Part shown: positions 33,768 through 59,241 of the stretch, piece by piece
Layout: each line of letters begins with the position of its first letter
How positions within the stretch are numbered: the stretch's first letter is position 1
Source: Candidatus Heimdallarchaeum aukensis
GTDB taxonomy: Archaea; Asgardarchaeota; Heimdallarchaeia; Heimdallarchaeales; Heimdallarchaeaceae
Assembly: GCA_021513695.1 (NCBI GenBank)
Contig: CP084166.1
Span: 2,912,001 to 2,976,000, forward strand
Length of the DNA stretch: 64,000 nt
Direction of reading: 5' to 3'
Notes under the pieces: generated by a model
Database searches by the model: none
Told to the model about the DNA's origin: nothing
The model's input: the letters and a program-made list of their open reading frames with translations, nothing else
Translations under genes and position numbers: made by a program

Positions 33768-36626
33768 TTGAGGTCATTCGTGTTGAAGAAGAAAAAAAGT
33801 TTAATTATAGCTTTAATTTTGGTTGCAACATTCACCTCTTTTGTAAACTTTCAAACAGCAGTTGTGAATGCAGAGAATTATCAGTTAAATAATGGAGATA
33901 CATTCGTCTATGATCATATATACAATTATGAAACTAATACAAGGGAAATATTCTTTCCTGATGAAAATAGAAATGATTATGCATATGAATCTATCTATAT
34001 TAATCAAGAAGAACATAAATACCTTAGAGGTTTTAATGTTACAAATACAGATTTAAGTTCAGATTACATCGAAGTTTTTGAAGTTAAAACAGGTGCCACT
34101 ATTTACTCTTATTATCAAAATAACACGTATTATAGATGGGGAGCAGATGGTTGGTATAAAGACTACTCAAATGAATACAACGATATCACATATTATTCTT
34201 GGGATTCAGGAAATGCTAATTATAGGAATTTAAATAATTATTCCAATCTAGTTTTTGATCCAACTGGTTATTTTGGAATATCAACATTTATCTCACAAGA
34301 AACTAGAGCATATAATGTTAATGGTGAAGTATTTACTTTACAAATAGATGTTTACTATTGTAAAACGAATGAGTGGGAAGATACATGGAATTCGACATGG
34401 TATGGTGTTGAGACTCCAACGCACAGTTTTAATTACGATGAATATTATTACTATGTTGACAACAACACTGGAATCTTGCTAGAATATAAGAAAATTCATC
34501 ACTATGATGTTACTTACAAATTTTATGAATACTTAGCTGATTATAATACTTATGTTAATTTCACACGTGTAAGAAATAAAAAGACTACAGATACATACAC
34601 ACTAATTAAATCTAGTAACTTCTATTCTACTGTTGATAATTCCTTTGTCCCATATTTTATTTTTAAGGACAATAGCTGGACACAACCTATAACAAACAGT
34701 ACAACAGGAATAACTTTTCCATTCCTATTTTCTAAAGACGTCGCGAAACTAGAATTTTATGTGTATAACTACCTATATGGATGTTGGAGATGGGATTTAG
34801 TAAATAGCCAAACAATTACTAGCACAGAGTTGAATTATACTGTCCCAATAGACTACTTTGGATATATACCTAATAATGTAAATAAAAATTTCAGAATTAT
34901 AGTTTATGATACAAAAGGCAACTTATTTATACAGTACCAATCTATTGAGGATGATAGGTACCCTATTCCCGATTGGCAGAGTCAAATAGAAACAAATAAA
35001 GAATATAAAGGAGTAGAAGACAAGGAACTGATCTTAAAATGTCTTTATATTTATTCTGACACTACTTGGAAAGTAGAAACAAGATTCTATTATAATCAGT
35101 CAGATTTAACACAATTTTGGTCAAACTATTATGAGGGTTATGGAAACAGGACATTAAATATTTGGATTAGCGGTATATGGGCTGTTGGAGACTATACAGT
35201 TAACATAACGTTTACTGACGCGGTCAATACTACTTATTCTACTATTGTTCCTGTAACTATCTATCCCAGTGGAACGGATGTAGACCCTCCAGATTTAAAT
35301 GTGCCTTGGTATGAAGAAAAAAATTTTGGAGAACCACATAAATGGGCTATCGGAGATTATGAAGAATTCTGGTTCAATACTTGGGATGATAACCCAAATT
35401 ACTATGAATTTTATGTTGATGGAGTTCTATATGATACAGGAAATTACTCTGAACAAATTAACTATTACTACAACTTTAATGATCTTATTAATGAAGTTGG
35501 ATTGCACAACCTTACTGTTATAACCTATGATCAATTTGGAAATTATAGGAAAGAATCAGTATGGGTAAAAGCTTATCCTGAAGGAACAGATTTAAAAAGA
35601 CCAGATTTATGGTGGAATGTTAACTCTTACTATGAATTAGGAAGCGCAGAACGATATAGTTTTTGGTTTAATGAGAAAAACCCTGATTATTACGAAATTA
35701 GACTAAACGATGAAATTATTTCATCAGGCAGCTATGATCAGAACTACTTTGAGATATACTTTACTGGTAAAGAATTATTTAGTGAAACAGGCGGACATAT
35801 TTTATCCCTCTTTGCTAATGATACCTCAGGAAATGAAATGTATTATGAAAAGGAAATTAATGTCGTTCCTAGTCAACCGGAGACTGATCCTCCCACATTC
35901 GAGAATATATATGATGTTGACTATTACAGAATTGGGGATTATTACGACATTTCCTTCTACATTAACGATAAATATCCTGATACTTACAATCTTTATATTA
36001 ATGGAAATCTAACGCTTTCCAATGTACCTTATGAAGGTTATGGATGGTATCCAGAGAATGAGCAACATTTGCAATTGCGAGATTATATCTTTGAAGAAGG
36101 AACCAATGAAATCTACATAGAAGCCTTCGATCAATGGGGAAACAATAATAATATTACAATTTACGTTAATGCCTATACTGAAGCCTATCAAGATGATTAT
36201 GATGCACCCCAGATAGATACTAACATGGACTATTGGCATGCAATTGAATACGTAATAGGTACTAGTAAAACAGTGAAATTTACATTATATGATGCAAATC
36301 CTGATTATTATGAACTCTACATTGACGACGAATTGATTAAAACCGATAGTTACACTGATGGGACTACTATCTCATTTAACCTTAATACCTACATTACAGA
36401 AGAAGGAATACATACAATAAAAATGGTTGCTTATGATGTTTTTGGAAATAGCAATGAATTAAAATTATCAATAAAAGCAATTTATGAATCAAGTTCTGAT
36501 GATACTAATGAAACTACTACACAAGATAAACAAACAATAGATTTACCATTTAGTGTATGGAGTATTTTTATCGCTTTACCTGTAATAACTATTATAGCTA
36601 AAAAGTTCAAAAAGTATAAAACATAA
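33768..36626 (+). CDS. giant secreted surface glycoprotein, paralog C (952 aa)
   Basis: Same architecture as paralogs A and B. TTG/GTG start after GAGGT. Its 3' ~1.65 kb is the inverted copy of the 3' part of paralog B. Confidence 0.7.
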   Translation: MRSFVLKKKKSLIIALILVATFTSFVNFQTAVVNAENYQLNNGDTFVYDHIYNYETNTREIFFPDENRNDYAYESIYINQEEHKYLRGFNVTNTDLSSDYIEVFEVKTGATIYSYYQNNTYYRWGADGWYKDYSNEYNDITYYSWDSGNANYRNLNNYSNLVFDPTGYFGISTFISQETRAYNVNGEVFTLQIDVYYCKTNEWEDTWNSTWYGVETPTHSFNYDEYYYYVDNNTGILLEYKKIHHYDVTYKFYEYLADYNTYVNFTRVRNKKTTDTYTLIKSSNFYSTVDNSFVPYFIFKDNSWTQPITNSTTGITFPFLFSKDVAKLEFYVYNYLYGCWRWDLVNSQTITSTELNYTVPIDYFGYIPNNVNKNFRIIVYDTKGNLFIQYQSIEDDRYPIPDWQSQIETNKEYKGVEDKELILKCLYIYSDTTWKVETRFYYNQSDLTQFWSNYYEGYGNRTLNIWISGIWAVGDYTVNITFTDAVNTTYSTIVPVTIYPSGTDVDPPDLNVPWYEEKNFGEPHKWAIGDYEEFWFNTWDDNPNYYEFYVDGVLYDTGNYSEQINYYYNFNDLINEVGLHNLTVITYDQFGNYRKESVWVKAYPEGTDLKRPDLWWNVNSYYELGSAERYSFWFNEKNPDYYEIRLNDEIISSGSYDQNYFEIYFTGKELFSETGGHILSLFANDTSGNEMYYEKEINVVPSQPETDPPTFENIYDVDYYRIGDYYDISFYINDKYPDTYNLYINGNLTLSNVPYEGYGWYPENEQHLQLRDYIFEEGTNEIYIEAFDQWGNNNNITIYVNAYTEAYQDDYDAPQIDTNMDYWHAIEYVIGTSKTVKFTLYDANPDYYELYIDDELIKTDSYTDGTTISFNLNTYITEEGIHTIKMVAYDVFGNSNELKLSIKAIYESSSDDTNETTTQDKQTIDLPFSVWSIFIALPVITIIAKKFKKYKT
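34980..36626. repeat. right arm of the inverted repeat (3' part of paralog C)
   Basis: See the left-arm entry. Identity decays about 16 nt past the stop codons. Confidence 0.85.
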
Positions 36627-37034
36627 ATTTACTTACTTTCTTATTTTTTTATTAATGACTAATTTTAGAATAACAACAAAAAATAAGATGGATAGATTCA
36701 AAAATTAATATAAAATGTGAATGGAGATATTCTTGTACATCAGGTAAGCATTTCTAAATGTTTCGTGCATTTAGATATTCTAAAAAGGAGAAAATAAAAG
36801 CGCTGAAACAGGAGAAAAAGTGAGTAAAAAGTATAGATCTCGCAAAAATCATTTCATTCTAGTGAAAATTGAAATTTAGCAAAAGAAGAAAATTTGTTAG
36901 TAATCTTATAGGAAAGATATAAAAGCATCTCAGTTTAGTTGGAATTAAGATTCCATATGTCATTAGTGATTTTTCTATACTTTTTTAAACAGTTTAATTT
37001 TCATTGATTTAAAAAAGTAAAACTTGTGATTTAA

Positions 37035-40809: not shown

Positions 40810-42699
40810 CTACTTTATTGCATTAACGGGACAAACCATGGCGCAATAACCGCACCCCGTACAAGTGTCCTGTTTGATGATTATTCTTCCATCTTCTTTA
40901 ACTATAGAAGGACAAGCAAAGTCTATTAAACAATTACCGCATCTAGTACAAAGTTCTTGGTCAATAGATAAAGGTTTAACGGGAGTTTTCATATTTCTGA
41001 GTTTATTAACAATACATTCTCCCTTGAAAATTAAAACAGATGGACCTTGATATTCCAAAGCTTCTTTAACTATTTTCACGTTCTCTTTAACGTTTATTGC
41101 TTGGACAGATTTAATCCATTTTACTCCCAATCCCTTAACTACTTCCTCAAGATTGATTGGGTTGAAATCCTTTCTTTTCCAAGTAGTTGAGGAAGGAGAA
41201 GGTTGACCTCCAGTCATGGCTGTCAAAGAGTTATCTAAAATTGCTAAGGTTATGTTGTGGTTGTATTCTACAGCATCAAGAAGAGCAGGCATACCTGCAT
41301 GGAAGAATGTTCCATCACCAATAATAGCAATAACTTTCTTTCCATTGACTTTGGACATGCCTAAAGCTGTTCCTAGTCCTCCCCCCATACATAACCAATA
41401 ATCTCCAACATCTACAGGCTGAACTTGACCAAGAGCATAACAGCCGATATCAGACGGAATAATGAAATCTTCACCAGTAGCCTTCTTAATGGAATAAAAA
41501 GCTCCACGATGAGAGCAACCATCGCACAATCGGGGAAGAGTACGAGGAATTAAAAGCTCTTCACTATCAAAAATCTTCGGAAGAGGAGAAGGATCAGGAA
41601 TCTCATAGAAAACTGAATCATCATTTGGGTCAGCAACTATACGACTAAAAGCTTCCTTTAAGGCATCGGGTCTCAAAGAATTTTCATAAGGAATCTGCAA
41701 CTTCTCTTTACCAAGAACAGTGACATTTAAGTTGTATCTTCCTATAATAGCCAGTATCTCCGTTTCTAAATAAGGTTCAAGCTCTTCAACAAAGTATACG
41801 TATTTGTATTTTTTAACAATTTCAGCAATCTTCTCTTCGTTCAAAGGAAAGATGGCTCCAATTTTCAAAATATCTCCATCAAAGTTGTAGAGTTCAGCCA
41901 TATATTCAACAATAGGATAAATAGCTCCATGGGTGATGATTAATCTCTCAGATGAAGAAGAAGACTCCTTAAGAGAGATAAATTCGTCAAAGAGAGGATC
42001 TTTAACAAGTTCTTTCAAACTCTTATGTAAACCCTTGTGTAATAGATACCTTGCAGGAATTTGATATTTTATCTCCCTAACAAATTCTCCATTCCAGCTA
42101 AGTTTTTCTTCGACAGGCCTATGCTTGACAATTCCAGTGCTTAAAGAAGTAAAATTAGTCATTCGAAGCATACAAAGCATATTGTATTTTTCAGATAAAT
42201 CATAGATCTTAGGAATAAAATCCCTAATTTCCTGAGGAGTGGAGGGCTCAAAAACAGGAATGTGAGCAAATTTGCCCCAGAACCTAGAATCTTGCTCGTT
42301 TTGACTAGACTGACAACCAGGGTCATCAACAGCAACAATAACCATACCTCCTTGAACACCAAAGTAAGCTAAGGCCATCATCGCATCAGAAGCAACATTA
42401 ACTCCAACATGTTTCATAATAACAGCTGAACGAACACCCGATAAAGCTGCAGCGGCAGAAACCTCAAAAGCAACTTTCTCATTAACAGAGTATTCAAAAT
42501 ATAATTGTCCCTTCTCATGAAGCTTAGCCAATCTAACTTGAATTTCAGTACTAGGAGTACCAGGATAAGCAGCAGTAAAACCAACACCAGCTTCAAGTAA
42601 CCCTTGAACAACAGCATGATTTCCCATGAAAAGAGCTTCTTCGGTTTCAGCTATTCCATTATCAATTTTGTTTTTTCTTTTAACAGACATAATAATCAC
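40810..42699 (-). CDS. iorA: indolepyruvate:ferredoxin oxidoreductase alpha subunit (TPP and 2x[4Fe-4S])
   Basis: TPP-binding GDGTFFHAGMPALLDAVEYNHNITLAILDN. C-terminal CTRCGNC...CPS and CTGCGYCAMVCP ferredoxin motifs. Confidence 0.85.
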   Translation of the reverse strand: MIIMSVKRKNKIDNGIAETEEALFMGNHAVVQGLLEAGVGFTAAYPGTPSTEIQVRLAKLHEKGQLYFEYSVNEKVAFEVSAAAALSGVRSAVIMKHVGVNVASDAMMALAYFGVQGGMVIVAVDDPGCQSSQNEQDSRFWGKFAHIPVFEPSTPQEIRDFIPKIYDLSEKYNMLCMLRMTNFTSLSTGIVKHRPVEEKLSWNGEFVREIKYQIPARYLLHKGLHKSLKELVKDPLFDEFISLKESSSSSERLIITHGAIYPIVEYMAELYNFDGDILKIGAIFPLNEEKIAEIVKKYKYVYFVEELEPYLETEILAIIGRYNLNVTVLGKEKLQIPYENSLRPDALKEAFSRIVADPNDDSVFYEIPDPSPLPKIFDSEELLIPRTLPRLCDGCSHRGAFYSIKKATGEDFIIPSDIGCYALGQVQPVDVGDYWLCMGGGLGTALGMSKVNGKKVIAIIGDGTFFHAGMPALLDAVEYNHNITLAILDNSLTAMTGGQPSPSSTTWKRKDFNPINLEEVVKGLGVKWIKSVQAINVKENVKIVKEALEYQGPSVLIFKGECIVNKLRNMKTPVKPLSIDQELCTRCGNCLIDFACPSIVKEDGRIIIKQDTCTGCGYCAMVCPVNAIK

Positions 42700-42839
42700 G
42701 ATATAGAAGTAATAGATGTATCTCTTGAAAGATGAAAGTATAGTTATTTATAAATTTAATTTAGCTAAAATAAAATATACTATTGTAGATTATTGAAATT
42801 TAATTCAGTCTAATCATCAAAAAATAAAGAATATCGTTT

Positions 42840-42868
42840 ATTTCAATTCCACTATGTCTGATTCTAAC
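42840..42868 (-). repeat. solitary degenerate CRISPR repeat (one substitution and a 1-nt deletion versus the consensus), same orientation as the array
   Basis: ATTTCAATTCCACTATGTCTGATTCTAAC versus the consensus ATTTCAATCCCACTATGGTCTGATTCTAAC. It lies 504 bp beyond the last canonical repeat. Confidence 0.6.
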
Positions 42869-42877
42869 GTAATTATC

Positions 42878-43192
42878 TTATTGTGTTTTTAAGAGTTTTA
42901 CCAGAGGTTGAATCAACTTGTCAATTCTATCAAAGGCTTCTTTTATATCTTGTTCATATGCCCAAACGTGTATGTCTCCTAACAGCAGTTCTAAATTTCT
43001 ATCTTTTTCTGTTTTCATTAAGGCAAAACCTAACCAATGTCTAACTAATGCTAAAAACCCATCAATTGAACAATTACCTTTTAAAACTTCATTATATTGT
43101 TTTATTATCAATTGTGCTGCTGCAGTAAGAGTTAGTTCTTCTTTGATTTCCTTTGTGTTAGATTTCATTAAGTATAGATTCCTTATAAACAA
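42878..43192 (-). CDS. hypothetical small alpha-helical protein (104 aa) lying between the array's terminal repeat and the solitary degenerate repeat
   Basis: Intact ORF with no motif recognised. Confidence 0.35.
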   Translation of the reverse strand: MFIRNLYLMKSNTKEIKEELTLTAAAQLIIKQYNEVLKGNCSIDGFLALVRHWLGFALMKTEKDRNLELLLGDIHVWAYEQDIKEAFDRIDKLIQPLVKLLKTQ

Positions 43193-43372
43193 ATAAAGGT
43201 TGTTTTTAGTAGTGTTAAAAATGCATTTAGGTGGTTTTTCAGCTCGTCCCTTTACTTTTTACGATGTTTCTAAACTTTTTAAATCTTCAGAAACGGAAAA
43301 AATTGTTAGAAAAAACGTTTCTTACATAATAAAGAAAGAATTTGAATATGTTATTACTAAACAGCTTAATAT

Positions 43373-45865
43373 ATTTCAATCCCACTATGGTCTGATTCTA
43401 ACAAGATTTAACTGATTTTGCTGCGTGTAATATTCCTAGATTTCAATCCCACTATGGTCTGATTCTAACGATTTTAACGAGGGTAACTCTGACGCTGAGC
43501 ATATAAATTTCAATCCCACTATGGTCTGATTCTAACTAAAATAAAATAAAATACAATAAAGGTGATTAATATAATTTCAATCCCACTATGGTCTGATTCT
43601 AACTATGTGGGTAACTTTATTAACTTTAGATGTTAAAAACATTTCAATCCCACTATGGTCTGATTCTAACGCAATCGAACAAACTGACACAAATATTAAC
43701 CTATACATTTCAATCCCACTATGGTCTGATTCTAACACATTTTTGAACCATTTAACAAGTCTAAATTGTTCTATTTCAATCCCACTATGGTCTGATTCTA
43801 ACATTAGTGTTTGGTTTTTTGCTCTATTATTGTCTTTAATTTCAATCCCACTATGGTCTGATTCTAACACAATGATCAAATTTATACCACAACAATTAAT
43901 GCGAAATTTCAATCCCACTATGGTCTGATTCTAACCTACTAATCATGAAGATATAATCTATTCATTTAGTTAATTTCAATCCCACTATGGTCTGATTCTA
44001 ACAAGATAAATGGTCTGAAATCAAAAAACATCATACTTATTTCAATCCCACTATGGTCTGATTCTAACTTAATCATATTCTTATTAATTATGCTTCTGCT
44101 AGTGCATTTCAATCCCACTATGGTCTGATTCTAACAGACTCTTCCCCATTTGTGTGTGAGCAACTAAACAAAATTTCAATCCCACTATGGTCTGATTCTA
44201 ACGATGATCTAAGAGAATTAAACGAATATATCAGCAGAATTTCAATCCCACTATGGTCTGATTCTAACTATGATCCTACGCTTGCTTTGTAATCCTGATG
44301 ATGAATTTCAATCCCACTATGGTCTGATTCTAACTAAGAAAAGAACGCATCAAGCGTTTTCTTGAAGAATAATTTCAATCCCACTATGGTCTGATTCTAA
44401 CTCATCATCAAAATGCCGACGGCTCGACTGAATTTTAATTTCAATCCCACTATGGTCTGATTCTAACTCATTCCTCAACTTGAGAGCGTCAGAATGAGAA
44501 AAAATTTCAATCCCACTATGGTCTGATTCTAACAGGTTATTAATCTGTGAAATAATATTGCTTTCAGTATATTTCAATCCCACTATGGTCTGATTCTAAC
44601 GCAATCGAACAAACTGACACAAATATTAACCTATACATTTCAATCCCACTATGGTCTGATTCTAACACATTTTTGAACCATTTAACAAGTCTAAATTGTT
44701 CTATTTCAATCCCACTATGGTCTGATTCTAACATTAGTGTTTGGTTTTTTGCTCTATTATTGTCTTTAATTTCAATCCCACTATGGTCTGATTCTAACAC
44801 AATGATCAAATTTATACCACAACAATTAATGCGAAATTTCAATCCCACTATGGTCTGATTCTAACGTGATTTTATTAATGATTTTGTTAATAAGCTTAAT
44901 TCATTTCAATCCCACTATGGTCTGATTCTAACTAACTTAACCATGATTGCTGAAGAAGGCGACCCATTAATTTCAATCCCACTATGGTCTGATTCTAACG
45001 GAATATTATTGTTACTGTTAGGTTTTTTGGCTACTTATTTCAATCCCACTATGGTCTGATTCTAACAAATACGAATATTTAGGTAAATGTATTGCTCGAG
45101 CTAATTTCAATCCCACTATGGTCTGATTCTAACAAATACGAATATTTAGGTAAATGTATTGCTCGAGCTAATTTCAATCCCACTATGGTCTGATTCTAAC
45201 TGATCTACACAGTTTATGCTTTGATTGATCGATATTGATTTCAATCCCACTATGGTCTGATTCTAACAGAATTAGCAAATTCAGAAAGAGAGTTAGTTAC
45301 CTGATTTCAATCCCACTATGGTCTGATTCTAACATATGGTCAGAAGTAAACGCAAGATTAGAATTTATTGATTTCAATCCCACTATGGTCTGATTCTAAC
45401 AGCATTTGCCAAAGTAATTAATGCCGAATTCTTGCTTATTTCAATCCCACTATGGTCTGATTCTAACAAAGCAGTACAAATCAAATACAATAATAGATTG
45501 ATAATTTCAATCCCACTATGGTCTGATTCTAACCCAGGAGTTCCTCGCATTCAAAGCATGGAAAGAAAGATTTCAATCCCACTATGGTCTGATTCTAACG
45601 CTCTATTCCATCGCTGAGGCCTAAGCCTAATGCACATTTCAATCCCACTATGGTCTGATTCTAACATTATGGCCTACATAATTTAACAATTAGTATTGTT
45701 AGATTTCAATCCCACTATGGTCTGATTCTAACAATGTCGTAAATGCAGGAATGGAGATTTCTATATTGAATTTCAATCCCACTATGGTCTGATTCTAACC
45801 CATTTACTGAATTCTCTACACATTTAGATCAACTCATTTCAATCCCACTATGGTCTGATTCTAAC
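43373..45865 (-). CRISPR. CRISPR array of 38 identical 30-bp repeats and 37 spacers of 36-37 bp
   Basis: The direct repeat ATTTCAATCCCACTATGGTCTGATTCTAAC recurs with a 66-67-bp period. Read on the minus strand it is GTTAGAATCAGACCATAGTGGGATTGAAAT, ending in the ATTGAAAT 8-nt handle typical of type I-B repeats. This sets minus-strand transcription, leader at the cas2 side. Confidence 0.97.
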
Positions 45866-45964
45866 ACTTCATATTTCCTATATTTTTGATAATAATAAGG
45901 CTTTTCTTTTTATTTACATTCGTGTTCCTCCCATTTGGTGTTTACTTTATAAATATCTACATTC
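45866..45964 (-). promoter_or_regulatory. CRISPR leader (~99 bp, AT-rich) between the cas2 stop and the first repeat
   Basis: Its position, and a TTTATAAA TATA-like element on the transcribed strand about 70-80 nt upstream of the first repeat. Confidence 0.5.
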
Positions 45965-46228
45965 TTATAATATATTTGATTTATTTCCTTTTTGTATTCC
46001 TATTTCTTTTCTTTCTAAATATTTTTCATCTCTTAATGTATATACTAATATACTATCTTCACTTTTTTTTATCATTTTTTCAATATTTTTTATTATTGAG
46101 CGCAATTCTGCTTTTGTTATTTCTCCTTCAAAAACACTATTTTGTATCCATTCCAGATATGTTTTCAGAAACCTTCTTACTTTGTCTATTCTTTCTACTT
46201 TTATATCATATACTATAATAACATACAT
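45965..46228 (-). CDS. cas2: CRISPR-associated endoribonuclease Cas2
   Basis: MYVIIVYDI...NSVFEGEIT matches the Cas2 signature (87 aa). Confidence 0.9.
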   Translation of the reverse strand: MYVIIVYDIKVERIDKVRRFLKTYLEWIQNSVFEGEITKAELRSIIKNIEKMIKKSEDSILVYTLRDEKYLERKEIGIQKGNKSNIL

Positions 46229-46231
46229 GCA

Positions 46232-47218
46232 TTACCACCACGATATAAGTGGTTTGTATTCTAATTCACCCAAAAAGTGTTTACAAAGCTTATATAATTC
46301 AAGCCTTATTAGCCTTTTGTAACTCACATTTCTTTTTAATTCTTTGTGTTTTATTCTTGTTTTTAATTTTTGGTCCCAAAGTTCAATGAATTTTCTTTTT
46401 CCTGTCTCTGATAGCAACAAGTTTCCTATTTTTCCTTCAAAATCTTTATCGTTGAGTATTTTCTTATTTACCAAAGTTAATATTACTCTATCTGATAATA
46501 TGGGTTTAAAAATCTCACTCACATCAAGAGCAAGAGAAAATCTTCTTTCAAAAGGTTCATGTAAATATGAAATTGTAGGATTCAGTTGTGTATTATATAT
46601 TTCTGAGAGTATTGTAGTGTATAGAAGCGAATTACCAAAACTAATTAAAGCGTTCATTCTATTTGTAGGAGGTCTTCTTTCTCTTTTCACAATCTTAAAT
46701 TCTTTAGGAACAATTTGATCAATAGCTAAGTAATATTTATTTCGAATACTGCCTTCCAATCCCATTATCTTCTTAATTTCTAATATTTCTTGAATTTTTT
46801 TTGTTTCTTCTTCTATTTTTGAAATTATGTCACCAATTATTGAATCTTTTCTTCTACTCTTTAGGATTTTAATTATGTTAAAAGCTGAACCTCGAACAAA
46901 TTTTTTAGCTAATTTCAATCTTTTTGGATAAGATAGATAGTGTGCTGCTTGTTTTATAATCATATCTCCGCTAAGCAGTGTTTCTCGGGGATATAATGTA
47001 CTTTTATACCAACCATAATGATCAAAAAAGTGCACTGGAATTCCTTTTTTTCCAAGAAATAATACCACTCCGCCTGATAGAGAAAGATTTCCATATGCGT
47101 AGATTGCATTTATTCTTTCAACAGGTAAAGCTCTTTTCACATCTTTACAATGGAAATACAATGTATTTTCTTTTCTGTATAAAATTCCATTTTTCACAAT
47201 ATAAAATTCTTTTTTCAT
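46232..47218 (-). CDS. cas1: CRISPR-associated integrase Cas1
   Basis: 328 aa with Cas1-like sequence, between cas4 and cas2. Confidence 0.85.
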   Translation of the reverse strand: MKKEFYIVKNGILYRKENTLYFHCKDVKRALPVERINAIYAYGNLSLSGGVVLFLGKKGIPVHFFDHYGWYKSTLYPRETLLSGDMIIKQAAHYLSYPKRLKLAKKFVRGSAFNIIKILKSRRKDSIIGDIISKIEEETKKIQEILEIKKIMGLEGSIRNKYYLAIDQIVPKEFKIVKRERRPPTNRMNALISFGNSLLYTTILSEIYNTQLNPTISYLHEPFERRFSLALDVSEIFKPILSDRVILTLVNKKILNDKDFEGKIGNLLLSETGKRKFIELWDQKLKTRIKHKELKRNVSYKRLIRLELYKLCKHFLGELEYKPLISWW

Positions 47219-47749
47219 CTAAACCACATAACAAAAGTCTTTATACGCACACTTTGTGCATTTTGATGTTTTGATTTTTTTTGGAAGCGGTTTTTCAATT
47301 ATTTTTTCAATTTTGTTCAAAATTAGAAGAAGTTCTTTTTTATTTTCTTCAGTTAAAGTGACATTTTTCTTTTTATTTTCCTTTGGGTAGCGAATTTCTC
47401 CTTCTGCTTTTACTCCGTATCGATCTAAAAAGTAAAGATAGTAAAGTAGCTGATAGTAGTCAGCTTCTTCGTTGATACTTGATTTTTTAACTTCATTTAA
47501 TATTAATTTGTTCTTTTTATGCAAAAAATCTACATTTATAGCATCTAAGATTGTAATGTTTTTTTTCTCTCTCCGATATGATTCTTCATGTATTTGCCTT
47601 CCAATCAAAACTTCTTCATTTTCATTTTCCAATTGAATATTCCTTGCATACAACCATAGTTTCCTTTTACAAATAAAATAATAAGATACCATTACTCCAG
47701 TTATTTGTTTTGAATGTCCAAATAAGTTATTCATCACGTTCACTTTCAA
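47219..47749 (-). CDS. cas4: CRISPR-associated RecB-like nuclease Cas4
   Basis: An N-terminal Cys (YYFICKRK) plus the C-terminal CTKCAYKDFC Fe-S cysteines. 176 aa. Confidence 0.8.
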   Translation of the reverse strand: MKVNVMNNLFGHSKQITGVMVSYYFICKRKLWLYARNIQLENENEEVLIGRQIHEESYRREKKNITILDAINVDFLHKKNKLILNEVKKSSINEEADYYQLLYYLYFLDRYGVKAEGEIRYPKENKKKNVTLTEENKKELLLILNKIEKIIEKPLPKKIKTSKCTKCAYKDFCYVV

Positions 47750-50577
47750 ATTATAAAACTCTGATCAAAAACTTCATTTAGTTTCCTTATATCCAATCCC
47801 TCTTCATAAGAAAACTTGATTAAGTTTAGAAATTCTTTGTTTACTTTAATGTATCCTCCTAATTCCTCAAATTCTCCTGTTCTGACCTTTTCTTTTATTA
47901 AGTGAATTAAAAGACGACTCTTTGAATCTATTTGTACGTATCTATTTGAAAGAGAGACAGTAAACTTGTTTAAATATTTTTGCAATTTCTTTATTTCAAT
48001 ATATCTCTCATTTTTATTTTGATTATTACAAGTAATTTGTAAAAACTTTTTCCAGACTTTTTCTCCACAAATATTAGAATCTTCAACAATCTCATTTTTC
48101 TCTAAAAACTCTTTTTCACTTTCAGGTAGTAGACTCGGGTTAATTTTTAATGATATAGGTAAAAAAATGCTAATAGTGTCACTGTTAATTACTCTGATTT
48201 TTCCTAATTCTTTAAATCTTAAATAGTTCATTGGTTCAATTATTTGCGATATTGTTATTCCATACTCACTTTCTTCTTTCTTTTTATACTCAATGGTATA
48301 CCTGTAGAACTCAGCAAATCTTTTTTCCTTGATAAATTCTTCTAATTCTTCTTTTCTATTTTCTTGGACCTTAAATCTTGTATCTACACCGTATATCATT
48401 TCCGCAGAATCCATATTGTAGACATAGAGTATGCTCTCTTCTTTACTTCTCTTATTTTCTCGATTGATCCTTCCAGCTATTTGTTCGATTGAATCAAGTA
48501 TTGCATATTCTCTAAATCCGAAATCACAATCAATATCTACACCCGCTTCTACTGATTGAGTTGATACCAAAACAACATTCCTTTCATGTGTTTCCTGATT
48601 CATTAATTGAATGATCTCTTTTCGCCTATCTGGAAGAATAGTTGAATTCAATAGGAGTAATTCAAAATTTTTTTTATCTAGATTGTTTTTTAAGTGCTGA
48701 AAGATGTTTATGGAGTTTTGTATTGTATTAGTCACGCAAAGAATTTTTTTCTTCCTTCTTTTACAACAATTTTCATATATTTTCTCTATGAAAAAGTCTA
48801 AAGAAGCAATTTCTTTAATATAGAAATTCAGAGTGTTACGAAGGAATAACTTGCTTTGAAAATACATATCAGAATTTTTTAAAAGAACTGAACATTTGTT
48901 CTTTTGCTCATTATCAAGAAATAGAGATAAATCAGGAAGCGTTGCACTCATTAAAATAAAATACATATTATAATTCTCTGCTAGTTCTCCTATGAGATTA
49001 ATAAAGGCATTCCAAAGATTTACAGGGATTGATTGTACTTCATCCATGATAATAATACTGTTAACAAAATTGTGCAGTTTTATATTAGCTTTTCTGGAAT
49101 TTCTGAAGAAAGTTTCAATAAAGTTAACACTACTAATGATATTGATCTGATTGTTCAGAAACATCTGATTAAGAAGAATTTTAGTCTCTTCGAATTCTTC
49201 CATAGTAAAATCCCATTCTATAAGTGAATAAATCTCTGAAATTGAAATATGTTCATTTTCACTAGAGAGCGTTTCTTTAATGACTTTTGCATTTTGTTCT
49301 ATAATATTAATGAAAGGAAAAACATAGTTGATTCGTTGTAAATTTTTTGTGTGTTGGTTGTTCAGAATGTCTAATGCCAGTTTTATTGACGTATTTGTTT
49401 TTCCGCTCCCTGTTGGTGATCTAAAAAAGAAAATTCGTTTTGCTTTATTTAACTCCTTCTCTAGAATACTACTACATTCAATCAAAATTCTTGTTCGTAG
49501 CTCATTTATATCTTCGATAAAGTTAATGTTTTTCTTTAACAGTTTATCAACTAAAGTTTTATCTTTAATTTGTTGATTAAATATCTTGTTTTTAAAAAAG
49601 TTAGAAACCAAGTTTTTTTTACATTTTTCATCAATTAAATTGAATTCAAGTTCACTTATATCCCAGTTATTTACAAAAGAAGCTGTAGCATAGCTATCAG
49701 CTGAAATTAAGAGAGAAAATATAAGTTTATAAAAATGAAATAGAGTATTTCCATCTTGTAATTTCTCCAAAGTAAATTTTCTTATCTTCGAATTATTGCA
49801 ATATCTTCTGAAAAGACTTAAGTTATCATCTGATATTTCAATTAATGTGCATTTTTTAATAAAGTTTATGTTCCTCTCTTCTAGTAGTTTTTTTTCTCTC
49901 TCCTCTAAATACTCTTCTATATTCTTTAATCTAGAATGATGTCTATTTACACTACTATTTAGAACTAGACTTAAGAAAAACAATTGAAAAGTTAAAAGAA
50001 GAATCTTTTTTTCTTTTTTTTCTCCCTTTTTTTGCTGAATCCCTTTCATAATGTTAAAGATCTCTTGTATGTTAAAATAATCTAAAAATATCTGCCCAAA
50101 CTCACTGTGATTTTTTGAATTACCAAAGAAATTTTCTACCGTTTCCTTTATTTTTTGATCTAATTGTTGAAATGAAAGATTTAATTTTAACACTTTTCTT
50201 TGATAGTTTGGATTTATTTTTCCAAAGTCGTGAAAATAGATTATTCTTGCAATATTTGTTTTTATGAAATCTCCAAATTTGTTTAAAGAAAGAATATCTT
50301 GATCTATATTTAATGCATTATAAATTTTTGTTATCATGTTATTGAAAATATCTTTTAATTTATACTCCTTAATAATTCTTTCAAAAATTTTTAAAGTAAG
50401 TTCAGAGTGTTGAGATAAACTTTCTACTTCGCCTGTTGGAGACATGTGGGCTTTTATTGAACTTTCAACTAATTTAGAAAACTCTTCTACAAGGAATTTA
50501 TCATAACTATATTCACCTAAAATATTAGAACAGGAAAATTGTTTCTCCATTTTCATCACTAACAAGAATATATTCAT
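47746..50577 (-). CDS. cas3: Cas3 HD-nuclease/helicase fusion
   Basis: HD motif IYFHDFGK, Walker A SPTGSGKTN and DExQ box IIMDEVQ. The 5' end overlaps cas5 by 53 bp; the true start may be the Met 8-10 codons downstream. Confidence 0.85.
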   Translation of the reverse strand: MNIFLLVMKMEKQFSCSNILGEYSYDKFLVEEFSKLVESSIKAHMSPTGEVESLSQHSELTLKIFERIIKEYKLKDIFNNMITKIYNALNIDQDILSLNKFGDFIKTNIARIIYFHDFGKINPNYQRKVLKLNLSFQQLDQKIKETVENFFGNSKNHSEFGQIFLDYFNIQEIFNIMKGIQQKKGEKKEKKILLLTFQLFFLSLVLNSSVNRHHSRLKNIEEYLEEREKKLLEERNINFIKKCTLIEISDDNLSLFRRYCNNSKIRKFTLEKLQDGNTLFHFYKLIFSLLISADSYATASFVNNWDISELEFNLIDEKCKKNLVSNFFKNKIFNQQIKDKTLVDKLLKKNINFIEDINELRTRILIECSSILEKELNKAKRIFFFRSPTGSGKTNTSIKLALDILNNQHTKNLQRINYVFPFINIIEQNAKVIKETLSSENEHISISEIYSLIEWDFTMEEFEETKILLNQMFLNNQINIISSVNFIETFFRNSRKANIKLHNFVNSIIIMDEVQSIPVNLWNAFINLIGELAENYNMYFILMSATLPDLSLFLDNEQKNKCSVLLKNSDMYFQSKLFLRNTLNFYIKEIASLDFFIEKIYENCCKRRKKKILCVTNTIQNSINIFQHLKNNLDKKNFELLLLNSTILPDRRKEIIQLMNQETHERNVVLVSTQSVEAGVDIDCDFGFREYAILDSIEQIAGRINRENKRSKEESILYVYNMDSAEMIYGVDTRFKVQENRKEELEEFIKEKRFAEFYRYTIEYKKKEESEYGITISQIIEPMNYLRFKELGKIRVINSDTISIFLPISLKINPSLLPESEKEFLEKNEIVEDSNICGEKVWKKFLQITCNNQNKNERYIEIKKLQKYLNKFTVSLSNRYVQIDSKSRLLIHLIKEKVRTGEFEELGGYIKVNKEFLNLIKFSYEEGLDIRKLNEVFDQSFII

Positions 50578-51319
50578 GAGTTATTGTTTCTTTCACCAAA
50601 AATTCAGAATTTGAAAAAACAACAGTTTTAAAAACATATTGATTTTCTCTGAAACCAATTGGATAATTTTGATAAAAGAAAAAGTCTATATCTGCATTTA
50701 CAATAAGATCTGTTTCATCTTTTGCTACAATATCATTAAAAACAATTGTTTTAAACCTTGTTTCTGTTTCACTAGTGATTTCTTTGTATTCATATTCTCC
50801 TTCATAAATAATACTTAATGGAAATTCGTTTTTCCCCATATAAGGCATGAAATGAGCTCGATTTTCTTGTAAATTTTTCTTTAGTTGAGCAAAAATGTTA
50901 TCTTGAGCAGTTCCTTTTTCTAAATAAATTCGATAAGCAGGCTTAATGAGAATTTGTTCATTTACAATTAAATTTCCTCCCGTTTCATAGCTTCCATAGC
51001 CATGAAAGTTAATAAATTGAATGAACTCTTTTCTTAAAGGCGAATAACTATTTTCAAAATCAGAGTCTTTATATGGTGCTTTAGAGCCTTTTTTAAGCTT
51101 TAAAGGTGTTATTCCAATTCTAATGCCAGAAAGTTTATCAATAAATTCAGGATTTTGCTTTTTTTCTCGATAACCTTCAAGACCTATCAGTGCTCCAAGA
51201 ATTCCAAGTACTGATGGTTTTGGAATAATATCATAGGTCAACTTTGTTTCAGTAATGTCAGGTTTACTAAAAGTTCCAAAGTCAGAAAAAATAATGAAGG
51301 ATAAAAGATTTCTCTTCAT
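50525..51319 (-). CDS. cas5: Cas5 (type I-B)
   Basis: The N-terminus FGTFSKPDITETKLTYDIIPKPSVLGILGALIGLEG matches the Cas5 signature. Confidence 0.8.
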   Translation of the reverse strand: MKRNLLSFIIFSDFGTFSKPDITETKLTYDIIPKPSVLGILGALIGLEGYREKKQNPEFIDKLSGIRIGITPLKLKKGSKAPYKDSDFENSYSPLRKEFIQFINFHGYGSYETGGNLIVNEQILIKPAYRIYLEKGTAQDNIFAQLKKNLQENRAHFMPYMGKNEFPLSIIYEGEYEYKEITSETETRFKTIVFNDIVAKDETDLIVNADIDFFFYQNYPIGFRENQYVFKTVVFSNSEFLVKETITHEYILVSDENGETIFLF

Positions 51320-51327
51320 ATCCTCAC

Positions 51328-52350
51328 CTAACTACTTAAAATGCTCCCGGTTAAGAGATTTTTTATCTCAAAGGTAATTTTCTCGTTTGTACTACTTTTT
51401 TCGATTTCAGTTTTAGCAGGGTCGATATAAACTTCAACTGTTATAGGATTATTCGGTGATAACACTTCTTTATTTTGGTTGATATAGTCCAATAATCTGT
51501 TTATCTTTATTCTAATTTTTCCTTTTTCTTCTGTATTTTCAAAATCTACAAAGTGTTTAAGGTTTTGAAGACAAATTGGATTATCATATTCAATATAGAT
51601 GAAACACTCTGTTTCAGAACCTATTTTTGTTGTTGAATTAACATTATGGACTCCTAATCTTGCTGCTTCCTTGAATATATCTATATCTGAATTAGATAAA
51701 AGGTATTGTTCTTTTTTTTCTAGTTTTTGAAGAACAAAATCTGACATTAAAGCATTTGGATTAATGATGTAATCAAATACATAGTGTATCTCTAATGCTT
51801 TTGTTTCTTCACCTATAGTTGTGTGCTTTGCTTCCTGTCCTTCTTTATCATCTCTATATGGAGATAATATCTGATTTATGTAATGGATATTCTCTTTTGT
51901 TGCGTTGATCCCATAGGAAATTTGTATTGGTCCTGTTATCGATAAACTTGAAAGATTTTTGCTTTTTGGAGCAAAAGTTACTCCAAACATTCTTACATCA
52001 ATGCAAGAAAGCAAATTTCTTAGGATTTGTCTGTCATCTTCTTTTTTATTTTTGTCATCAGAACTAAATAATGCATAGTAATTTTCCTCTAAGGTCATTG
52101 GACTTAGGTTGTCATTCCTTCTTCTCCAAGCGAAAATCTTAGAATCAGTTTTATTGTCTAGGATATATTTTCTGATGCAGTATTTCAGCGATTTATCTGT
52201 AGCATATATAGTCCCTTTCTCATCAGGAAGTCTTCTTGGCGTTCCTGAAAAGTCAGCATTGAAATTACTGTTTACTGACTTTACAATGATTAAGCCACTT
52301 ACGTGCTTTTCAAAAAGGTTATTTTCTGTATTGTTTTGATTTTCTTTCAA
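51328..52350 (-). CDS. cas7: Cas7 (Csh2/Cst2-type backbone subunit)
   Basis: GLIIVKSVNSNFNADFSGTPRRLPDEKGTIYATDKSLKYCIRKY matches the Cas7 N-terminal signature. Confidence 0.85.
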   Translation of the reverse strand: MKENQNNTENNLFEKHVSGLIIVKSVNSNFNADFSGTPRRLPDEKGTIYATDKSLKYCIRKYILDNKTDSKIFAWRRRNDNLSPMTLEENYYALFSSDDKNKKEDDRQILRNLLSCIDVRMFGVTFAPKSKNLSSLSITGPIQISYGINATKENIHYINQILSPYRDDKEGQEAKHTTIGEETKALEIHYVFDYIINPNALMSDFVLQKLEKKEQYLLSNSDIDIFKEAARLGVHNVNSTTKIGSETECFIYIEYDNPICLQNLKHFVDFENTEEKGKIRIKINRLLDYINQNKEVLSPNNPITVEVYIDPAKTEIEKSSTNEKITFEIKNLLTGSILSS

Positions 52351-52352
52351 TT

Positions 52353-54425
52353 TTAATCCTCCTTTTTCATGAAAAATATATTTTCATCAAAAAATCCAAC
52401 GTAGAAACTCATTTTAATCTCATTAAAGGGTTGTGAAAAGTTATTTGCCAAATAATTCAGTGTCTCAGCAAAAACGATGTGTCTAAAGTCCTTGTATTCA
52501 GAGATTTCATGAAGATATTTTTCTAGATATTTTTCTAACAAAATTCTCTTTAAGTTTATAGGCGATTGTACAGACACTAAAGGTGTTAGTAGTTTCATTT
52601 TTTTATCTGCGTTGGATTTGCTGATTAAGTAGTAAACCATTTGTCCTAAATAATAGGCAAATTTTTCAGGGGAATCGATCTTAAAAGATTCTCCGTTAAT
52701 TATTTTCTTTTTTTCTTCTCTTATTTTGTCTAACATGATCTCACCATTTTTATTTTTTTTAATAAAATTATCATTTACTTTACTAAAAAGATCAGCGTTA
52801 AGATAAAAGTTTAAAATTTCATGTATCTGACTTTTTGTTGAAGTATTTTTTCCAGTTTCACTGTGCATTATAAATTTATTTTCTAATAATTTAGTTGTAA
52901 TTTCAGCAATATCGTTATCTGTTAAACATATCTCGCTTCTATAAATTGTATCAAAGAATTTTTTTCTATACTTGTAGATAAGATATTTTTGTTCTGTTAT
53001 ACCACTTTTTTTCTTTGTGTCTAAATCCCCAAAGAACTTGATCTTAAGATCAAAAATTTTTTTTAACTTTTTCAACAAATCTTCTTTTCCAAATTTCTTA
53101 CTAGATTGTGTTCCAAGATATTCTTTATATTCGGAATTTCCGTTGAAGTACAGACGATAGTTAGATATGTAATCAAAAAAAATGATCGATTTTTTATTTA
53201 TTATATTTACTAATATGATATCAAATGAATTTAGGTTGCTTCTTTTTTGAATTTCCTTTATTGTCAAAAAAAAGAATTTTCTTTTATTTTTATTATCCTT
53301 TTCTAATGATTTTAATGACTTAATAAAGTCTATTTGTTCTTTAACTAAGCTTTCTTTGATAAAAAGTGGAAAAATGTTTATCTTATTTTCTTTAAGAAAA
53401 TAGAGAAAGTTATTAAAATATTCTGCGCATGAAATACAAATTTTTATTGTATGTTTAAGATGCCTGTCAAATTTAATAGAAAAAGGCTTTTTTTCATTAA
53501 ATGATGTATAATTTGAAATATTTCCCATTTCTCCTTTTCTTCCACAAACAGGGCAAGTAGACTCAATAATTGTGTCTCTGGTAACAAACAACTTAAGAAT
53601 AATGTATTGTTCAAAAAGCTCTTCTATAACTTGATAGTTTTTATAGTTTAAGAAAACATATGCTTTGTCACATAATCTCAATAGTATATTTAGTTTTTTT
53701 AGTAAACTATACTCTTGTTCTGATACTTGATTTCTTATATTATCTATGTACTTTTTGCTTTTAATATTCTTATATTCTCCTTCTTGTAAATTAGTTCCAC
53801 CTAAAATATCCTTATTATTTTGGTCTAATAAACCAAATATGTTAAGTAATTCTCGATAAAAATGTTCATAAGTGAGCATAATCTTTGTCTTTTCTTTGTT
53901 TTTGTTTGAAGTAATTATCTCATTGATAAATTCCTTTGTTTTGTTATTTTTGACTGTATTTAAAATTAATTTCAAGTATTCGTTTTTTAAGTTAAGTTTT
54001 GAGATTCTTTCGAGAGGTTTATTTTTTCCCTTTTCATAAAGCGGATTTCTGAATAAACTTCCTAGTTTAAAATGAAATAATGAAAAAGTGTTTAATCCGC
54101 TTGTACTTCCTATGTACTTATTAGAATCTGATATTGTGGAAGTATATTTTTTAAAATCTAGTACTTTTATTAGTTCTTTTTCTTTTCTTAAAAGACTAAA
54201 AGGTTCTTTATTTGGAAAATCTTGAACAAGCTCATCATTTAGATCGGTTATTATTCTAAATCCTTTATATGAATTTTCTAGATTCCAATCTACTTCAATG
54301 AGAAAAATAACAGGAAATTGTTCTTTAATAGAATCAATATCATAATCTTCACTTACTACTAACTGTTGAGTGTTTTTTTCCATCTTTTCAAGTTCTTTCA
54401 TAAATTTAATTGATTCGATTATCAT
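52353..54425 (-). CDS. cas8b: Cas8b (type I-B large subunit)
   Basis: A 690-aa protein between cas6 and cas7 with an internal Zn-finger-like CPVCGRKGE...CISCAEYF. Confidence 0.65.
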   Translation of the reverse strand: MIIESIKFMKELEKMEKNTQQLVVSEDYDIDSIKEQFPVIFLIEVDWNLENSYKGFRIITDLNDELVQDFPNKEPFSLLRKEKELIKVLDFKKYTSTISDSNKYIGSTSGLNTFSLFHFKLGSLFRNPLYEKGKNKPLERISKLNLKNEYLKLILNTVKNNKTKEFINEIITSNKNKEKTKIMLTYEHFYRELLNIFGLLDQNNKDILGGTNLQEGEYKNIKSKKYIDNIRNQVSEQEYSLLKKLNILLRLCDKAYVFLNYKNYQVIEELFEQYIILKLFVTRDTIIESTCPVCGRKGEMGNISNYTSFNEKKPFSIKFDRHLKHTIKICISCAEYFNNFLYFLKENKINIFPLFIKESLVKEQIDFIKSLKSLEKDNKNKRKFFFLTIKEIQKRSNLNSFDIILVNIINKKSIIFFDYISNYRLYFNGNSEYKEYLGTQSSKKFGKEDLLKKLKKIFDLKIKFFGDLDTKKKSGITEQKYLIYKYRKKFFDTIYRSEICLTDNDIAEITTKLLENKFIMHSETGKNTSTKSQIHEILNFYLNADLFSKVNDNFIKKNKNGEIMLDKIREEKKKIINGESFKIDSPEKFAYYLGQMVYYLISKSNADKKMKLLTPLVSVQSPINLKRILLEKYLEKYLHEISEYKDFRHIVFAETLNYLANNFSQPFNEIKMSFYVGFFDENIFFMKKED

Positions 54426-55141
54426 TCAATCACCTCAATACAACCAAATCCCAACCCTGTTTTCTCTCCAAGGCCTGTATTGTATGCAAATTTTAACAAT
54501 TCTCTACTCGCTTGGACATCAAATGTCATCAAAGTACATCTTCTGTAGCTATTTTTTATTAAAACTCTTTTTAGTTTTAAATTGCGAATACTCGTTATTT
54601 CAAAGAAGTCTTGCTTCGGTTTTCTTCCAAAATATCTATAATATCTTTCTAACAGGTTTTTATGTAAATTTTCACTAAATTTAAGATCCCTTGGTGTAAG
54701 GTCATAAGGTTTTAGCTTTCCTTCTTTGTTGCGTCTCAAAGTCTTAACATATATTGGAGAAAGTGTTTTTAAAGTACAATCTGATTTAATATTTTTTTTA
54801 TTTTCAATTTTAATTCTCTTTACTACAAACTGCTGGGTCCCTAAATGGAATTTTAAATCTTTAAAAACGCCTGTTGCTAATCCGTCTAAAAATTCGTTAT
54901 CGATGGATGTAAAGTAAAAGAATGCTTCTTTAAAATATAATCCTTTTTTTGAAAATTTTTTCTCTTCTATTATTAAATTTGAAAAATTGTAATATTTGAA
55001 CTTTGTTTTTCTGTGTAATCTTTGTGAGACTTCTTTCTTTGAATCACTGATTTTTCTTAATATTGCACTAGTTAACCAATGTTGATAATTAAAATTTAAT
55101 GGACCATCAGTGATCTTTTCAACAAAGATTTTTAATCTCAT
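54422..55141 (-). CDS. cas6: Cas6 pre-crRNA endoribonuclease
   Basis: The C-terminal glycine-rich loop GLGEKTGLGFGCIEV. First gene of the operon. Confidence 0.8.
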   Translation of the reverse strand: MRLKIFVEKITDGPLNFNYQHWLTSAILRKISDSKKEVSQRLHRKTKFKYYNFSNLIIEEKKFSKKGLYFKEAFFYFTSIDNEFLDGLATGVFKDLKFHLGTQQFVVKRIKIENKKNIKSDCTLKTLSPIYVKTLRRNKEGKLKPYDLTPRDLKFSENLHKNLLERYYRYFGRKPKQDFFEITSIRNLKLKRVLIKNSYRRCTLMTFDVQASRELLKFAYNTGLGEKTGLGFGCIEVIE

Positions 55142-55973: not shown

Positions 55974-56003
55974 TTTATAATCAGACCATAGCGGGATTGA
56001 AAT
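55974..56003 (+). repeat. solitary degenerate CRISPR repeat in crRNA orientation on the plus strand (3 mismatches versus the consensus)
   Basis: TTTATAATCAGACCATAGCGGGATTGAAAT versus GTTAGAATCAGACCATAGTGGGATTGAAAT. It lies 29 bp after the csa3 stop. Confidence 0.55.
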
Positions 56004-58603: not shown

Positions 58604-58628
58604 TTCTTTATCTCTTTTTTGAGAATTT

Positions 58629-58976: not shown

Positions 58977-59055
58977 TCAATACACACTTAATCATTAATA
59001 TTATTAAACTCTTAATTAGTATTTCTGCTGAGAAATTTGTATAATTAATGCAAAG

Positions 59056-59150: not shown

Positions 59151-59241
59151 GCTTACCATATTCTCTTTTTTTACTCTTAAATAGACTTTGTGAAGCAAAC
59201 TTCCTTCTTAGTTTAAATAAACATAAATCAATTACCATATA

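Follow-up and report, generated by a model that had tools for sequence, protein, structure and literature searches.

CreTA modules were reportedly described in type I CRISPR-Cas loci by Li et al. in 2021. Type I-B systems show an enrichment of mini-arrays with partial complementarity to cargo genes, and likewise of repeat-like sequences close to cas6 (Shmakov et al. 2023, 10.1101/2023.03.03.530964). In the phage locus AcrIC5-RacrIC1, a copy of the repeat lies 11 nt downstream of the acr gene (Camara-Wilpert et al. 2023, PMC10651486). The integration of viral DNA into arrays by repeat recombination has been proposed (Faure et al. 2019, as cited in PMC8616872), and spacer-protospacer recombination is reportedly a staphylococcal transduction phenomenon (Varble et al. 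2019). Foreign DNA and cargo genes in CRISPR loci are already known; what is new in the locus described here is a tiny gene family linked to repeats, and a mobile-element cassette lying in a spacer slot. CRISPR arrays tend to be treated as records of spacers and nothing else, with sequence past the last good repeat dismissed as decay. The comparison of sister genomes presented here shows that a spacer slot can hold a conserved and exchangeable mobile-element gene.

The feature is located in a type I-B CRISPR-Cas locus of Candidatus Heimdallarchaeum aukensis, within the 64,000-nt stretch of DNA that was analyzed as a whole (the window). The cas operon, on the minus strand (45965–55141), comprises cas6, cas8b-like, cas7, cas5, cas3, cas4, cas1, and cas2. 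Clear Pfam matches were obtained for Cas2, Cas1, Cas4, Cas3, and Cas6; the Pfam family of Cas7 was assigned via its orthologue in the H. endolithica locus, and the cas8- and cas5-sized genes of the window operon gave no Pfam match. The array on the same strand (43373–45865) consists of 38 perfect 30-nt repeats and 37 spacers of 36–37 nt. On the plus strand the repeat reads ATTTCAATCCCACTATGGTCTGATTCTAAC, and no perfect copy is expected by chance. Both the set of cas genes and the repeats of about 30 nt ending in ATTGAAA(N) are those of type I-B. The crRNA sense (GTTAGAAT...ATTGAAAT), in which the H. aukensis repeat reads GTTAGAATCAGACCATAGTGGGATTGAAAT, is the minus strand, the same as that of cas2 through cas6. 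Therefore, the cas2-proximal end is the leader end, and position 43373 is the trailer end. The window and a contig of a second strain (L003) have only the two spacers nearest 43373 in common, which identifies this side as the old end of the array. An Rfam search of positions 42000–46500 gave no match.

The initial annotation had reported a degenerate repeat in array orientation, 504 nt from the array, and this repeat (DR', 42840–42868, minus strand) was confirmed. Its local alignment score is 50, whereas shuffled windows reach at most 30. DR' is 29 nt long and reads GTTAGAATCAGACATAGTGGAATTGAAAT on the minus strand; relative to the consensus repeat, it has one deletion and a G>A substitution. 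The weak hairpin predicted for the repeat is lost with both mutations (MFE 0 versus −3.0 kcal/mol). The interval of 504 nt (42869–43372) separates DR' from the last perfect repeat (repeat 38, 43373–43402, minus strand), which forms the left border of the insert. It is thus enclosed by complete, full-length repeats of the same sense on both sides, as spacers are, but its length lies far outside the 36–37 nt found for all 37 spacers.

The position of DR' can be interpreted by comparison with H. endolithica, whose array was reached through its Cas2. That array contains 19 perfect repeats, the last of which abuts the upstream flank of iorA, with no insert. In BLASTN, positions 11558–20258 of the H. 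endolithica contig (L011) correspond to window positions 42873–34171 with 90% identity, the synteny starting at the terminal repeat in H. endolithica and at DR' in the window. Because the outer flank of DR' is orthologous to that of the H. endolithica terminal repeat, DR' marks the ancestral array end. By this synteny, DR' is the original terminal repeat, and the 504 bp occupy one spacer slot. The earlier suggestion that the ORF lies in a giant pseudo-spacer agrees with the flank identity. The T6 run that follows the terminal repeat is conserved in H. endolithica; in the window it lies 16 nt beyond DR' (42819–42824, minus strand). Archaeal RNA polymerase terminates at oligo-T, and this run is likely the native terminator of the array.

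The insert is part of a divergent gene pair, comprising a truncated ATPase-like gene, about 50 bp of shared promoter region, and the complete gene ORF96. The truncated gene (43221–43372, plus strand; tblastn E 3.8e-21) is a P-loop ATPase-like remnant of the first 51 codons, which are free of stops and share 76% amino acid identity with the N-terminus of a gene on the metagenomic contig L009. The L009 gene continues into a Walker A motif, GLPGSGKS, whereas the window copy ends exactly at the repeat. The 180 bp originally described as a spacer-less gap are therefore not empty but contain this remnant together with a conserved promoter-like segment. The stretch that aligns with L009 begins at the repeat border and runs on for 9 nt after the stop codon of ORF96. 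On L009, the order is ATPase gene, promoter, and P0004, the ORF96 homologue, with both genes adjacent. P0004 is also present on a second contig, L008, among ORFans, and one neighboring ORF on L008 gave a hit to phrog_15706 (7.5e-8) and a weak one to fusellovirus VP2. On these matches, the donor element, known only from two short contigs of 3.2 kb and 0.9 kb (L008/L009), is tentatively called virus-like. The homology of the insert to this element and the truncated second gene support one candidate of the initial annotation, namely a remnant of an insertion.

Searches beyond these two contigs returned little. Viral contigs in IMG/VR contained neither the repeat nor any relative of the family, of the ATPase fragment, or of two L008 proteins. 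GenBank phage records held nothing related to the element, and an initial scan of metagenome contigs gave no match. On L008/L009, no CRISPR repeat was found near the P0004 gene. A comparison of about 380 spacers with the insert and with L008/L009 yielded nothing beyond chance matches of 12–16 nt. An identical copy of 622 nt, covering the insert and its flanks, is present in four other assemblies. The arrays of the insert-bearing strains have only the two oldest spacers in common, yet the insert is identical throughout. The array thus still acquires spacers in strains carrying the insert.

ORF96 (42878–43168, minus strand), the complete gene of the insert, is a genuine gene. It had been listed as a 104-aa ORF at 42878–43192. 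This longer frame exists, with a TTG start, but translation almost certainly begins at the ATG at 43168 and yields 96 aa, because a database entry matches with 100% identity and coverage and the same start is found in all homologues. The matching entry is the annotated hypothetical protein K9W45_13010. Comparison of ORF96 with its H. endolithica orthologue yielded a dN/dS of 0.22 and a dS of 0.55, similar to the cas genes. Selection on the gene during its time in the mobile element could account for part of this low ratio. The AF2 model is a confident four-helix bundle (pLDDT 88.6), for which the fold matches were generic helical bundles only, and the family alignment shows conserved columns over five sequences.

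A profile search of 1.84 billion representative proteins returned four members of the ORF96 family, with no additional member among 5.8 billion clusters, and a scan of genome contigs returned only the H. endolithica locus. The four members are the two ORF96 orthologues, the paralogue 97a (41% identity), and P0004. They are found only in Heimdallarchaeum CRISPR-cas loci and in the one virus-like metagenomic element. The pI is 4.6–5.2 in three members and 6.7 for the window ORF96. A regulatory or anti-defence protein had been proposed, with a search of Acr/Aca and defence families as the check; no family in Pfam, NCBIfam, PADLOC, or PHROG was matched below E 0.05, nor did the search against PDB sequence profiles match any family. 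Two further candidates were rejected. Cas11-type small subunits, such as Cse2, Csa5, Cmr5, and Csm2, are small basic helical bundles, a description that does not fit ORF96. A type II toxin-antitoxin pair was discarded because ORF96 is a single gene without a TA family match. We would venture that the ORF96 product is most plausibly a binding or modulator protein that acts in host conflicts with related mobile elements, and that it probably has no part in the biogenesis of crRNA.

Upstream of ORF96, the segment AACAACnTTTATTTGTTT (43169–43208, minus strand) is the only stretch kept in all family members, including the virus-like copy, and it contains a TATA-like box at 43190–43197, 21 nt before the ATG. 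From the archaeal BRE/TATA geometry, we infer that it acts as a promoter. In the interval between the array and ORF96, the pre-crRNA strand carries two T6 runs (43297–43315, minus strand), at 58–63 and 71–76 nt after the last repeat. The TATA-like box, these two runs, and the conserved T6 run beyond DR' together suggest an independent transcript. We propose that ORF96 is transcribed from its own TATA-like promoter into an mRNA that is probably leaderless, and that this transcript would end at the oligo-T stretch of the array just beyond DR'. The two T6 runs would largely insulate the gene from pre-crRNA read-through, and the earlier expectation that such read-through covers the ORF is doubtful in view of the runs and of the TATA-like element.

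Both junctions of the insert coincide exactly with complete repeat ends, and recombination at repeats fits this precision better than random deletion does. By its homology, the insert is mobile-element-like DNA in one spacer slot at the trailer end. The explanation we favor, and consider probable, is that a mobile-element-like fragment was captured by recombination at repeat borders and that ORF96 is expressed from its own promoter. For the exact path, we infer that the mobile element and the array recombined at repeat borders to yield the fragment. Either an element would have integrated, with most of it deleted later, or the cassette would have been swapped between repeats. At the left junction, the microhomology between the repeat and the ATPase coding sequence was not significant (shuffle P = 0.82).

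The timing of the capture may be approached through the ATPase remnant. Its open frame runs through the repeat to position 43415, and its dN/dS is 0.12. By this ratio, the remnant is too well preserved for pseudogene drift since the species split, pointing to a later capture or to continued constraint. The low dN/dS of the remnant suggests a more recent capture than is implied by the species divergence of ORF96 (dS 0.55). There may have been one ancestral capture followed by relocation, or several independent captures; the cas-like dS of ORF96 and the well-preserved ATPase remnant point in different directions.

The ORF96 orthologue of H. endolithica does not lie at the array end; it is found across the cas operon from there, in convergent orientation with 97a. 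A very degenerate repeat is located 40 nt upstream of it (local P = 0.0015), and 97a starts 41 nt after the solitary repeat that trails csa3. In L007, a contig of a closely related strain, 97a is preceded by a two-repeat mini-array with one 37-nt spacer. All three host copies (3/3) are thus downstream of a CRISPR repeat in the crRNA sense, at 40, 41, or 204 nt, with the AACAACnTTTATTTGTTT element between the repeat and the ATG in each. The initial annotation had proposed conservation of the arrangement as a test. At the corresponding site, H. endolithica has the repeat alone, but the ORF is conserved elsewhere in the same CRISPR-cas locus, after the very degenerate repeat, so that the answer is mixed.

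In the window, the csa3-like regulator gene (55307–55945, plus strand; Csa3_N domain, E 2.9e-11, plus wHTH) is divergent from cas6. It is followed on the plus strand (55974–56023) by a solitary repeat with three mismatches and about 12–20 nt resembling the start of the L007 mini-array spacer. The repeat itself occupies 55974–56003, and H. endolithica synteny resumes exactly there. The 97a/ORF96 pair that would follow is replaced by 4.6 kb of other genes. The homology of the two ORF96 cassettes spans only −38 to +9 around the coding region. Between H. endolithica and L007, the dS of csa3, cas6, and cas8 is 0.01–0.04, whereas that of ORF96 is 0.33, and the allele in L007 is mosaic, its central patch being aukensis-like. 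Therefore, ORF96 alleles are exchanged between lineages. A single inversion between two inverted arrays was rejected as the cause of the relocation, the orientation of ORF96 relative to the cas operon being the same in both species. A candidate repeat remnant 3' of the H. endolithica ORF96 did not pass the shuffle test (P = 0.71). The last H. endolithica spacer gave a shuffle P of 0.82 against the ORF96 3' end, and spacer 15 matched 97a no better than other spacers did.

A different reading of this repeat association is a CreTA/crlRNA circuit, in which Cascade, guided by a crRNA-like RNA that the conserved mini-array next to csa3 encodes, represses ORF96-family cargo genes, possibly toxin-like. 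These genes would then stay by the repeats as parts of a Cascade-dependent addiction or regulatory module. The L007 mini-array (repeat, 37-nt spacer, repeat) does lie between csa3 and 97a, and its spacer resembles, in one register, the antisense of the conserved 5' coding region of the family. It matches P0004 at 25/37 positions, the H. aukensis copy at 23/37, and the H. endolithica copy at 21/37. This likeness was equalled by 1 of 500 shuffles and ranked second among 381 real spacers. Additionally, the first 12 nt of the spacer are kept (10/12) after the solitary repeat of the window, and the arrangement fits the pattern of type I-B mini-arrays (Shmakov et al. 2023, 10.1101/2023.03.03.530964). 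However, the spacer match is only moderately significant (P about 0.002–0.005) and falls in coding sequence, not in a promoter. In the host copies, the seed is mismatched at position 8, and the PAM-side bases vary (TTA, TTG, GAA). L007 has the complete mini-array, whereas H. endolithica retains a single repeat of it and the window a single repeat with about 12–20 nt of spacer. The spacer is thus lost or truncated in two species in which ORF96 is intact, which is hard to reconcile with a repressed toxin, and ORF96 matches no toxin family. We regard such a circuit as unlikely.

ORF96 could instead be an Acr-type gene within a captured anti-CRISPR module. DR' would then derive from a Racr-like solitary repeat borne by the element, and the cassette would have entered the array when this element repeat recombined with the host terminal repeat. 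The gene product is small and in most members acidic, has a homologue in a mobile element, evolves fast, and has been exchanged between lineages. The gap from the gene to the repeat is 9 nt, compared with 11 nt at AcrIC5-RacrIC1 (PMC10651486), and viral integration through recombination of a solitary repeat with an array repeat has been proposed (Faure et al., as cited in PMC8616872). Conversely, neither the virus-like contigs near the gene nor any viral contig in IMG/VR bears the repeat, and the outer flank of DR' is chromosomal and orthologous, in contrast to a Racr repeat, which lies on a mobile element outside the host array. ORF96 matches no known Acr or Aca family, and its neighbors are the ATPase remnant and the repeats rather than an HTH gene of the Aca type. 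Strains carrying the insert still add spacers, which speaks against strong self-inhibition. An anti-CRISPR origin of the cassette is therefore improbable, as we see it.

It was also considered that the array serves as an expression site, with transcription begun at the leader (at csa3 in the case of the paralogue) extending into the gene and with Cas6 cutting at the flanking repeats, which would release a defined mRNA as a "giant crRNA". This would account for the position of every host copy in the crRNA sense after a repeat. The Shine-Dalgarno-like AAGGA(G/A), found 13 nt before the ATG in both the window ORF96 and 97a, would be usable only by transcripts that begin further upstream. Among other archaeal contigs of the same repeat family, the cargo is in the crRNA sense in 4/6 loci. 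However, read-through should be halted by the two T6 runs that separate ORF96 from the array, and DR' has no predicted hairpin, making its cutting by Cas6 doubtful. The conserved TATA-like box suits an independent leaderless transcript, and the gene on the virus-like contig works without any repeat. We think that release of the mRNA from flanking repeats is quite unlikely.

The insert could also be an oversized spacer, integrated as 504 bp into the young array by Cas1-Cas2(-Cas4) with duplication of the repeat. The junctions are repeat-exact at both ends, the fragment occupies the place of the oldest "spacer", and the spacers in the strain arrays include irregular lengths (21–77 nt). Recombination between repeats yields equally precise junctions, though, and the other family copies lie outside spacer slots. 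No CRISPR integrase is known to integrate DNA on the 504-bp scale, and we give this explanation little credence. Plain array erosion, one of the initial candidates, would make the 504 bp decayed spacers and repeats, the ORF a product of chance, and DR' a leftover, and, although degenerate terminal repeats are common, AT-rich sequence contains many chance ORFs, and the sister species lacks the ORF at the same site, this reading has next to no probability and is refuted by the lack of repeat remnants at the 66–67 nt period within the 504 bp, the homology of the region to a non-array contig bearing two genes, and the dN/dS of 0.22, four homologues, and confident fold of ORF96. Capture of a mobile-element-like fragment by recombination at the repeat borders remains the reading that we prefer.

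Other carriers of the repeat were also inspected. A 20-nt core of the repeat is present on 39 metagenome contigs, in most cases in the form of the GTTAAAATCAG... variant, and several of these contigs have genes between two repeats of the same sense. On an unrelated contig (L024), a UPF0175/DUF3368 toxin-antitoxin pair lies between the array end and a degenerate repeat, in the crRNA sense. Archaeal contigs carry, likewise between repeats and in the crRNA sense, a Fic gene, an MsrA/B fusion, and a cassette of catalase, ferritin-like, and flavodiiron genes. Antisense cargo, namely a transposase and one unknown gene, was seen in 2/6 loci. These loci give a hint of recurrent gene capture between the repeats of this family. 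One might go further and suppose that arrays of this family double as capture-and-expression sites, into whose spacer slots cargo recombines in the crRNA sense, with the repeats serving as Cas6 signals for mRNA release and as recombination sites through which cassettes pass between arrays and mobile elements, and with ORF96 as a mobile-element gene family homing to repeats; we doubt that this is so. On that supposition, the toxin-antitoxin, Fic, methionine sulfoxide reductase, and oxidative-stress cassettes of the other archaeal contigs would be further examples.

In an Asgard lineage, each of the three host contexts examined places one uncharacterised family downstream of a CRISPR repeat, which in one case is very degenerate. 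Should the recombination origin prove correct, the insert would be a concrete fossil of an exchange at repeats, between mobile elements and arrays, that has long been proposed. If ORF96 modulates CRISPR-Cas or excludes related elements, it would represent a new accessory or counter-defence factor from the closest archaeal group to eukaryotes. Array-calling tools would stop too early at this locus and miss such cargo.

Among the known systems, the CreTA and mini-array modules resemble the present locus in their stand-alone repeats and in a two-repeat mini-array near a type I-B cas6, with a spacer partly complementary to cargo of the same locus. However, the cargo here is a gene for a 96-aa protein, whereas that of CreTA is a small toxin RNA. 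The complementarity lies in coding sequence with an imperfect seed, and the mini-array is degraded in two of the three lineages. Furthermore, the window gene resides in the main array and not beside the mini-array. The Acr-Racr loci share with the insert the order of a small acidic gene followed within about 10 nt by a copy of the CRISPR repeat. In contrast to those loci, the repeat here is, by synteny, the terminal repeat of the host array itself, the gene has no similarity to a known Acr, and the array is active.

DR' itself resembles an ordinary degenerate terminal repeat, as it is mutated by a single deletion and a single substitution and abuts the trailer. Unlike such a repeat, it is cut off from its array by 504 bp of gene-bearing DNA instead of a spacer of about 37 nt. 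The likeness to the recombination events of Faure et al. (a hypothesis) and Varble et al. lies in the foreign DNA within an array and in the junctions at repeat or spacer borders, the present insert being homologous to a virus-like contig and placed between two complete repeats. Unlike in those events, neither an element-borne repeat nor a matching spacer was found here (about 380 spacers, L008/L009, and IMG/VR). This locus is further distinguished from them in that only a 504-bp fossil with one intact, conserved gene is left of the foreign DNA.

When the alleles of ORF96 (in the window, the 96-aa gene in a spacer slot at the trailer end of the type I-B array) were compared between H. endolithica, the sister species (L001, 10001-10291), and a strain close to it (L007, 3073-3309), dS was 0.33, and it was 0.01-0.04 for the adjoining csa3, cas6, and cas8 of the same two strains. 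The L007 allele carries an aukensis-like patch in its middle (nt about 184-255). This patch indicates allele exchange or gene conversion.

The P-loop ATPase-like gene truncated at the array retains a frame that runs uninterrupted across the terminal repeat (43221-43415, plus strand; 64 aa in total). Its dN/dS against the homologue on L009, a virus-like metagenomic contig, is 0.12. For a gene fragment, this degree of preservation is unexpected.

The regulator gene csa3 is followed by a lone repeat in both species (window, 55974-56023; L001, 10721-10750), and by a two-repeat mini-array instead in L007 (2548-2643). The mini-array spacer resembles the antisense of the conserved 5' coding region of the ORF96 family (best match 25/37, P about 0.002-0.005). 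The first 12 nt of this spacer are retained in the window 3' of the solitary repeat, with 10/12 matching. On the 5-kb contig L031, which shows neither an array nor cas genes, a lone Heimdallarchaeum repeat without mismatches (3501-3530) begins 5 nt past the end of a surface-protein-like gene of 327 aa, counted from its stop codon.

At the site of the H. endolithica pair formed by ORF96 and its paralogue 97a, the window holds about 4.6 kb (56004-60594) that includes an ABC-transporter ATPase gene (56325-57305), and synteny between the two genomes is back from 60595. Paralogy is also seen in the window, at 8725-13950 and 34171-36700: a large gene located downstream of the iorAB-apbA block recurs in part, as diverged paralogues, at other places in the window, with 74-86% of nucleotides identical to the copy in H. 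endolithica.

The arrays of the window (43373-45865) and of two other strain contigs, L003 and L005, comprise 37, 71, and 64 spacers, respectively, with nearly no overlap; the window and L003 have only the two trailer-most spacers in common. Irregular spacers of 21-77 nt occur in the L003 and L005 arrays. The window array contains two copies, 99% identical, of a 300-nt stretch that spans several repeat-spacer units (43641-43940 and 44571-44870), and in the H. endolithica array spacer 7 is identical to spacer 8.

Genes enclosed by two same-sense repeats, 0.8-3.9 kb apart, are also found in metagenome contigs of the same repeat family (L016/L050, L017, L024, L025, L027/L028, and L033). The cargo in crRNA sense consists of a UPF0175/DUF3368 toxin-antitoxin pair, Fic/DOC, an MsrA/B fusion, and a cassette of catalase, ferritin-like, and flavodiiron genes, and that in antisense of a DDE transposase and a 354-aa gene of no known kind.
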